DNA from: Escherichia coli
GTDB lineage: Bacteria > Pseudomonadota > Gammaproteobacteria > Enterobacterales > Enterobacteriaceae
Direction: 5' to 3' (one strand)
Assembly: GCF_003334815.1 (NCBI RefSeq)
Contig: NZ_QOWO01000140.1
DNA: 224 nucleotides
The translations under genes and the position numbers were made by a program. Under the pieces are notes generated by a model. It ran no database searches, was not told the origin of the DNA, and worked only from the letters and a program-made list of their open reading frames with translations. Position 1 is the stretch's first letter. Each line of letters begins with the position of its first letter. This document shows positions 1-224 of this stretch, piece after piece.

Positions 1-15
1 AATTTGAGAGACTCA

Positions 16-35
16 CGAACAACTTTCGTTGTTCA
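16..35 (-). other. Spacer RNA hairpin with GAAA (GNRA) tetraloop, 7-8 bp stem
   Basis: Plus 17-23 gaacaac is the exact reverse complement of plus 28-34 gttgttc. Loop is plus 24-27 tttc, which is GAAA in the minus-sense RNA. Positions 16/35 add a G-U closing pair in the minus-sense RNA. Confidence 0.5.
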
Positions 36-75
36 GTGTTTCAATTTTCAGCTTGATCCAGATTTTTAAAGAGCA

Positions 76-115
76 AATATCTCAAACATCACCCGAAGAT
101 GAGTTTTGAGATATT
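76..115 (-). other. Spacer RNA hairpin with UUCG tetraloop (extended stem, about 16 bp with a 2x2 internal loop)
   Basis: Perfect 11-bp inverted repeat: plus 76-86 aatatctcaaa pairs with 105-115 tttgagatatt. Inner stem 89-93/98-102 is 5 bp in the minus-sense RNA, including one G-U pair. Positions 87-88/103-104 form a 2x2 internal loop. Loop is plus 94-97 cgaa, which is UUCG in the minus-sense RNA. Confidence 0.6.
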
Positions 116-148
116 AAGGCAGGTGACTTTCACTCACAAACCAGCAAG

Positions 149-224
149 TGGCGTCCCCTAGGGGATTCGAACCCCTGTTACCGCCGTGAAAGGGCGGTGT
201 CCTGGGCCTCTAGACGAAGGGGAC
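149..224 (-). tRNA. gltW: tRNA-Glu (anticodon UUC), complete 76-nt gene with genomically encoded 3' CCA
   Basis: Reverse complement of 149-224 is GTCCCCTTCGTCTAGAGGCCCAGGACACCGCCCTTTCACGGCGGTAACAGGGGTTCGAATCCCCTAGGGGACGCCA. It folds as a cloverleaf: acceptor stem GTCCCCT/AGGGGAC (7 bp), D-stem GTCT/GGAC, anticodon stem CCGCC/GGCGG with loop CTTTCAC (anticodon TTC, plus-strand 188-190 as gaa), 4-nt variable loop, T-stem AGGGG/CCCCT with T-loop TTCGAAT (plus 165-171), discriminator G, then CCA (plus 149-151 as tgg). From memory this matches the E. coli rrn-operon tRNA-Glu. The four copies (gltT/gltU/gltV/gltW) are identical in the mature tRNA, so the copy cannot be resolved here. gltW is chosen only because it is the minus-strand copy in K-12 reference orientation; that assumes the window is in reference orientation. 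Confidence 0.95.

Follow-up and report, generated by a model that had tools for sequence, protein, structure and literature searches.

The window, as we call the whole 224-nucleotide stretch of Escherichia coli DNA that was analyzed, was found in a genome match search to be 100% identical to E. coli chromosomes, within their rrn operons, and of 5,426 complete E. coli genomes, 5,425 contained some match to it, with a median of seven locations in a genome. The gene order in an annotated example is 16S rRNA, tRNA-Glu, and 23S rRNA, the last of which starts 45 nt past window position 1. On the basis of this operon order and the location of tRNA-Glu on the minus strand, the minus strand represents the RNA sense. 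Besides tRNA-Glu, the window takes in the adjoining 148 nt of the spacer that leads from this gene to 23S in a Glu-type rrn operon. This agrees with the first-pass annotation of this DNA, made from the sequence alone, as tRNA-Glu-to-23S spacer transcribed from the minus strand. The following features were assigned:

149 to 224, minus strand: tRNA-Glu(UUC) gene, the spacer tRNA of Glu-type rrn operons (ARAGORN; Rfam tRNA, 60.1 bits; RefSeq annotation)
186 to 192, minus strand: anticodon loop of tRNA-Glu, CUUUCAC
118 to 142, minus strand: first trailer hairpin, GGUUUGUGA-GUGAAAG-UCACCUGCC, with its loop motif at 127 to 133 (from the fold; outside boxB)
76 to 115, minus strand: spacer boxB-like hairpin (inverted repeat, MFE, pair probabilities, covariation)
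63 to 75, minus strand: spacer boxA, UGCUCUUUAAAAA in RNA sense, with the core UGCUCUUUA at 67 to 75 (read from the sequence)
1 to 71, minus strand: match to StyR-44 (RF01830), a spacer segment downstream of boxB (cmscan)

In the transcript, tRNA-Glu is thus followed by the trailer hairpin, boxB, boxA, and the 23S leader. The StyR-44 match scored 81.5 bits against a gathering score of 54 (E = 3.5e-13) and runs off the window end; it begins inside boxA, contains a GAACAAC-GAAA-GUUGUUC hairpin at 17 to 34, and excludes the boxB hairpin. StyR-44 corresponds to Salmonella Typhi npcRNA 44, and the first position of the model lies within boxA (CUUUAAAAAUCUGG...). Should StyR-44 exist as a stable fragment, a cleavage within boxA, directly after boxB, would account for its 5' end. 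Over 76 to 115 itself, an Rfam search up to an E value of 10 returned no credible family; the overlapping candidates SNORD24, ceN33, Spd-sr07, mir-8315, and DicF scored far under their gathering thresholds and were rejected. Elsewhere in the window, a 10-nt direct repeat (11 to 20 and 132 to 141, ACTCACGAAC and ACTCACAAAC) was observed, with 90% identity between copies spaced by 121 nt. One of them sits beside the GAAA hairpin, the second supplies the 5' side of the GUGAAAG hairpin, and we consider this two-copy repeat to be probably a matter of chance.

The feature under study is the hairpin at 76 to 115, for which the first-pass annotation had described an 11-bp inverted repeat with a 5-bp inner stem, closing on a tetraloop that reads UUCG only in minus-sense RNA. 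Both elements were recovered at the positions given there. A repeat finder placed the arms at 76 to 91 and 100 to 115 (16 nt each, 88% complementary), with a perfect outer stem of 11 bp (76 to 86 with 105 to 115; AATATCTCAAA and TTTGAGATATT), a 2x2 internal loop (87 to 88 and 103 to 104), and an inner stem (89 to 93 with 98 to 102) that comprises 5 bp in minus-sense RNA (U-A, C-G, A-U, U·G, and C-G). The U·G pair becomes an A·C mismatch in the plus sense, and the loop at 94 to 97 reads cgaa in the plus sense and UUCG, on a canonical C-G closing pair, in the minus sense. Read base by base, the minus-sense RNA is AAUAUCUCAAA-AC-UCAUC-UUCG-GGUGA-UG-UUUGAGAUAUU, which includes the extra-stable cUUCGg tetraloop (UUCG closed by C-G). 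The asymmetry between the strands was also apparent from folding: when the minus sense was folded as a 71-mer, the hairpin formed at -17.9 kcal/mol (z = -4.59), with 0 of 200 shuffles as good, compared to -14.5 kcal/mol (z = -2.0) and 8 of 200 shuffles for the plus sense.

In a partition function for the whole 354-nt 16S-23S spacer, most pairs of the hairpin had probabilities of 0.86 to 1.0, the exceptions being the terminal pair (0.41) and two outer-stem pairs by the internal loop (0.56 and 0.72). On the strength of the shuffle z-scores and these pair probabilities, the structure at 76 to 115 is well beyond chance. Long-range partners were rejected as the preferred structure: the best duplexes of the arms with sequences elsewhere in the 5.3-kb rrnB transcript reached -11.7 and -14.9 kcal/mol, whereas the arm-arm duplex reached -15.4 kcal/mol and is local.

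The last paired base of the hairpin (window position 76, a U) directly abuts the first base of UGCUCUUUAAAAA (position 75), and the core of this element, UGCUCUUUA, is an exact match to the rrn boxA consensus (PMC6614797, PMC2724277). Since the hairpin ends where boxA begins, we identify it, with high confidence, as a boxB-like stem-loop belonging to the second (spacer) nut-like antitermination site of the E. coli Glu-type rRNA operon. Four of the features that define an rrn spacer boxB were observed, namely, location in an rRNA-operon spacer, a position 5' of boxA, an adjacent boxA consensus, and structure without a sequence consensus. The first-pass annotation had held that no role could be assigned to the hairpin; its context, adjoining boxA at 63 to 75, does assign it, as the spacer boxB. 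The E. coli rrn order, boxB and then boxA, is the reverse of that in lambda nut (PMC6614797, PMC6614801, PMC8632103, PMC10250234). The spacer set is said to include boxC (PMC10250234); by inspection of window positions 1 to 62, no GU-rich boxC-like motif resembling the leader element UGUGUGGG was seen.

The spacer boxB is, to be clear, already known and part of the textbook anatomy of rRNA operons. The boxB-boxA nut-like antitermination site reportedly goes back to Berg, Squires & Squires (1989, J Mol Biol 209:345), a study cited by all four of the papers on element order named above, and Pfeiffer & Hartmann (1997) reportedly linked the spacer boxA to efficient 23S synthesis. What is added here is solely a quantitative picture of the covariation of the spacer boxB.

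That picture is based on a scan of one genome per species for a tRNA-Glu 3' end followed, after 50 to 80 nt, by TGCTCTTTAA, which yielded 110 loci with 92 distinct spacers, 85 of them from Enterobacterales (Enterobacteriaceae, Erwiniaceae, Morganellaceae, Hafniaceae, Pectobacteriaceae, and Budviciaceae) and 7 from Aeromonadales. The scan was a non-exhaustive one, from which some expected taxa are absent, such as the E. coli and Salmonella representatives and Proteus, where the gap of 88 nt falls outside the range of 50 to 80 nt. Spacers identical to the E. coli window between tRNA-Glu and boxA also turned up in assemblies of Chryseobacterium mucoviscidosis (a 249-nt contig with a coverage of 1.5) and in a metagenome-assembled genome labelled Oxalobacter sp., and these almost certainly reflect contamination or mis-binning.

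Folded singly, all 85 Enterobacterales spacers contained a hairpin of 14 to 18 pairs, spanning 36 to 43 nt and ending 0 to 2 nt before boxA. To count covariation, 84 distinct Enterobacterales sequences were aligned with MAFFT from sequence alone, and the E. coli helix was read off this alignment, in which 93.7% of the helix cells were paired, compared to 25.6 to 45.9% when the partners were slid by 1 to 3 columns. Changes on both sides of a pair, that is, compensatory changes, occurred in 13 of the 16 pairs, and 137 double-change cells were observed versus 29 ± 4.5 in shuffles, with none of 500 shuffles attaining the observed number, although such shuffle counts do not translate into probabilities, because the sequences are related. 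RNAalifold, which was not told the helix, predicted the same one. With up to six pair types per helix position, the slid-partner control and the variety of pairs together make a convincing case for covariation. Additionally, the helix contained 65 G·U cells across the relatives, against only 7 A·C cells, and the pairing is therefore under selection on the minus-sense RNA rather than on DNA. The invariance of boxA in the same alignment is uninformative, since the sequences had been collected by requiring TGCTCTTTAA.

Neither an absence of covariation or conservation nor a preferred alternative fold, the two outcomes that the first-pass annotation had set against the pairing, was encountered. 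Its emphasis on the UUCG loop was, by contrast, only partly justified: the tetraloop is present in the window, but it is lineage specific, being found in just 12 of the 85 distinct relatives. The others carried UACG (15), UGCG (10), or UCCG (5), so that 42 of 85 had some UNCG loop, while the remainder had triloops, GNRA loops, or others, amounting to 33 loop types in all. Within this collection, UNCG-type loops are clearly common but optional, and the hairpin as aligned is conserved in shape and position and not in loop or sequence.

The same layout, with unrelated sequence, was seen in four other settings. In E. coli rrnH, an Ile/Ala-type operon, a hairpin of unrelated sequence (ACUUC..AGUG.ACCU-GCAA-AGGU.CACU..GAAGU) lies 3 nt before the same boxA, and the E. 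coli rrn leader has its own short hairpin, again unrelated in sequence and 3 nt before boxA. A strong hairpin ending 0 to 2 nt before boxA was present in 26 of 32 distinct spacers between tRNA-Ala and boxA (E. coli rrnH and 31 from metagenomes), and a boxB-like hairpin is located 1 nt before boxA in Proteus. An exception was provided by the rrn operon on plasmid p1 of Plesiomonas shigelloides (NZ_CP062197.1), where boxA (UGCUCUUUAAAAAUCUGG) follows the tRNA-Glu CCA end after 5 nt and both the boxB hairpin and the GUGAAAG hairpin are missing. This naturally boxB-less spacer indicates that the hairpin can be lost or, alternatively, that the tRNA substitutes for it as the upstream structure. In Erwinia sp. 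S63, Dryocola boscaweniae, and one metagenome, tRNA-Glu spacers were found to carry a boxB of the E. coli tRNA-Ala type (outer stem ACUUCAG...CUGCGAAGU), which suggests that boxB modules may have been exchanged between spacer types, giving rise to mosaic spacers.

What the hairpin does is best considered against the known workings of the site to which it belongs. The spacer nut-like copy serves 23S synthesis. BoxA RNA is bound by NusB-NusE, which nucleates the rRNA antitermination complex and, together with NusA, NusG, SuhB, and S4, forms the rrnTAC. Polymerase equipped with it elongates faster, pauses less, and is resistant to Rho, and the complex retains the nut-like RNA and 5' flank until they can pair with the later-made 3' flank for RNase III processing (PMC8632103, PMC6614801). 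With shape and position retained among relatives and loop and sequence left free to vary, the most plausible reading is that boxB serves as a structural element independent of sequence. The role we favor, if tentatively and with somewhat less than even confidence, is that of a presenter that keeps boxA single-stranded. BoxB would then be a fast-folding, self-contained helix, recognized, if at all, by its shape, which would sequester the 40 nt upstream of boxA and allow boxA to emerge single-stranded, at a fixed place, ready for loading of NusB/NusE; UNCG-type loops would do nothing more than nucleate folding. The mean unpaired probability of boxA was 0.80 to 0.87 with the native hairpin and 0.61 to 0.63 when its 40 nt were shuffled, a gain in the expected direction that was not significant, with 5.5 to 9.5% of the shuffles reaching the native value. 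Counting against an insulator of this kind, boxA was mostly paired anyway in a thermodynamic fold of the whole spacer.

Deletion of the leader boxB was reported to have little effect on 30S function or growth, and boxB has been described as not required (PMC10250234, PMC6614797), which implies that any function of boxB is subtle or redundant. Dispensable as boxB may be in reporter and deletion assays, its pairing has nevertheless been maintained by compensatory changes and its distance to boxA has stayed fixed at 0 to 2 nt. One might go further and speculate, with low confidence, that the spacer boxB is not a dispensable relic, that its shape and its abutment to boxA are under purifying selection in Enterobacterales and beyond, and that it has a real role, for example as an insulator or pause element that re-anchors the complex on the spacer boxA after the 16S cut and in this way brings the 5' flank of 23S to its 3' partner. 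At the least, the conservation sharpens a question that the literature finds puzzling, namely, why rrn operons retain boxB without an N protein.

Several other explanations were weighed against the presenter role. First, the hairpin might act as a pause or weak terminator-like signal, in which the stem and the U-rich UGCUCUUU slow RNA polymerase just after boxA, the delay giving NusB/NusE/SuhB time to assemble, or reassemble, on the spacer site after 16S release. Such a signal would be compatible with the boxB identity, differing in mechanism only, and a stable 16-bp two-tier hairpin does directly precede a tail with 5 U in 8 nt, at a conserved spacing of 0 to 2 nt to boxA. We nonetheless regard it as unlikely, since pausing at hairpins is suppressed in polymerase modified by the rrnTAC (PMC8632103), the base of the stem is rich in A-U, the U-run is interrupted, and a terminator and promoter scan of the window returned 0 sites, even if its 8-nt loop limit renders that scan insensitive to a two-tier stem. 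By the same features (A-U-rich stem base, interrupted tail, and no sites in the scan), the hairpin was also rejected as an intrinsic, Rho-independent terminator.

Second, the hairpin could be a determinant of RNA processing or stability rather than a transcription element, serving as a site or barrier for the RNases that mature the 3' trailer of tRNA-Glu and the 5' leader of 23S and, for example, setting the ends of spacer fragments such as StyR-44. Its location between tRNA-Glu and the 23S leader, the start of StyR-44 inside boxA, immediately 3' of the hairpin, and the conservation of structure with free sequence would all fit. We consider this quite unlikely, because the 16-bp helix, with its internal loop, is shorter than typical RNase III substrates, because the known 23S RNase III site lies elsewhere, and because the leader, which lacks a tRNA, has an equivalent hairpin ahead of its boxA.

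Third, a specific protein might bind the hairpin, making it a host analogue of lambda N-boxB that is read by its stem or by the A-A/U-U pairs by the internal loop. Outer-stem columns such as UAU...AUA and the AA/UU pairs by the internal loop are at least 90% conserved, and both NusA and SuhB bind rrn nut RNA (PMC6614801). That conservation may, on the other hand, reflect only shallow divergence, and the 33 different loops among 85 sequences, the unrelated sequences of the same-position hairpins in Ile/Ala spacers and the leader, and the lack of any known host N-like protein (PMC10250234) leave a specific protein site very unlikely. Finally, a chance palindrome, or a DNA-level element such as a cruciform or a protein-binding palindrome, with no function as RNA is effectively refuted, as, common though short A+T-rich palindromes are and dispensable as boxB reportedly is in reporter assays, neither would account for a z of -4.6, compensatory changes in 13 of 16 pairs, 93.7% pairing versus at most 46% for slid partners, and the excess of G·U (65) over A·C (7) cells that points to selection on a single RNA strand rather than on duplex DNA.

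Upstream of boxB, the trailer hairpin produced an observation that may be more interesting than boxB itself. Its loop motif, GUGAAAG, was found in 84 of the 85 distinct Enterobacterales spacers, and also in Proteus; no copy occurs in the Aeromonadales spacers, Aeromonas caviae, or the Plesiomonas plasmid operon. The stem of this hairpin covaries, with positions 2 to 4 from the loop paired in 65 to 66 of 66 sequences by 3 to 7 base combinations. GUGAAAG is an exact (7 of 7) complement of the tRNA-Glu anticodon loop, CUUUCAC, located 59 nt upstream in the same transcript; CUUUCAC occurs only once in the whole rrnB operon and was invariant in 107 loci, and the 7-bp duplex between the two amounts to -6.5 kcal/mol. 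We hypothesize that the loop could possibly engage in a loop-loop contact with the anticodon loop, in which it would display a GAA codon, and that the stretch from tRNA-Glu to boxA may form a module of two hairpins, the first of which docks through its loop on the anticodon loop of tRNA-Glu. Covariation offers no test of such a contact, since both partners are invariant. The searchable literature contained no description of the GUGAAAG motif (matches to the string were unrelated primer and miRNA items) and, concerning anticodon-complementary spacer loops, only HIV primer papers. A comparable codon-display idea for the Ile/Ala spacer, where the boxB apex CUGCAAAG complements 6 nt of the tRNA-Ala anticodon loop, was discarded; we judged the match to be due to chance because close relatives carry CUGAAAAG instead.

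Among known elements of the same spacer, StyR-44 (Rfam RF01830) adjoins the hairpin, but the family starts inside boxA and does not include it. The 23S RNase III processing stem is likewise distinct, as the first-pass annotation had correctly maintained: the hairpin is a local structure, whereas the flank duplex of that stem (-54.1 kcal/mol) is formed outside the window by the last ~27 nt before 23S and the 23S-5S spacer. RNAduplex, applied to the 23S 5' flank and the 23S-5S spacer, also predicted a GUCUCUC/GAGAGA extension at window positions ~5 to 11 on the minus strand, and by this prediction the 23S leader-trailer helix may just touch the window with its far end.

More broadly, the "Box-B helix" of bacterial and cyanobacterial ITS regions resembles the hairpin: it is a stem-loop, its sequence varies, and together with a conserved boxA it is routinely annotated as one of the ITS antiterminator elements (PMC2666751). 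In other phyla, however, it differs in sequence and length, and the annotated Taylorella boxB lies ~75 nt from boxA instead of abutting it. The boxB of lambda nutL and nutR, too, is the hairpin part of an RNA signal that includes a boxA and directs the assembly of Nus factors into an antitermination complex on RNA polymerase. In lambda, however, boxA precedes boxB, and a five-nucleotide GNRA-like loop is read specifically by the N protein, whereas the rrn spacer has the reverse order, a UUCG loop that is free to vary in relatives, and no known N-like partner. With its four-nucleotide loop, its position 5' of boxA, and the wide variation of loops, the hairpin was rejected as an N-binding boxB of the lambda type. 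The closest counterpart is the boxB of the E. coli rrn leader, a hairpin 0 to 3 nt before UGCUCUUUAA that is part of the same operon and the same Nus-factor system and likewise has no sequence consensus (PMC6614797). With about 8 predicted pairs and a GAGAAAA loop, the leader hairpin is shorter and unrelated in sequence, and its site has a recognizable GU-rich boxC and serves 16S, while the spacer copy, with its longer two-tier helix and UUCG loop, serves 23S.
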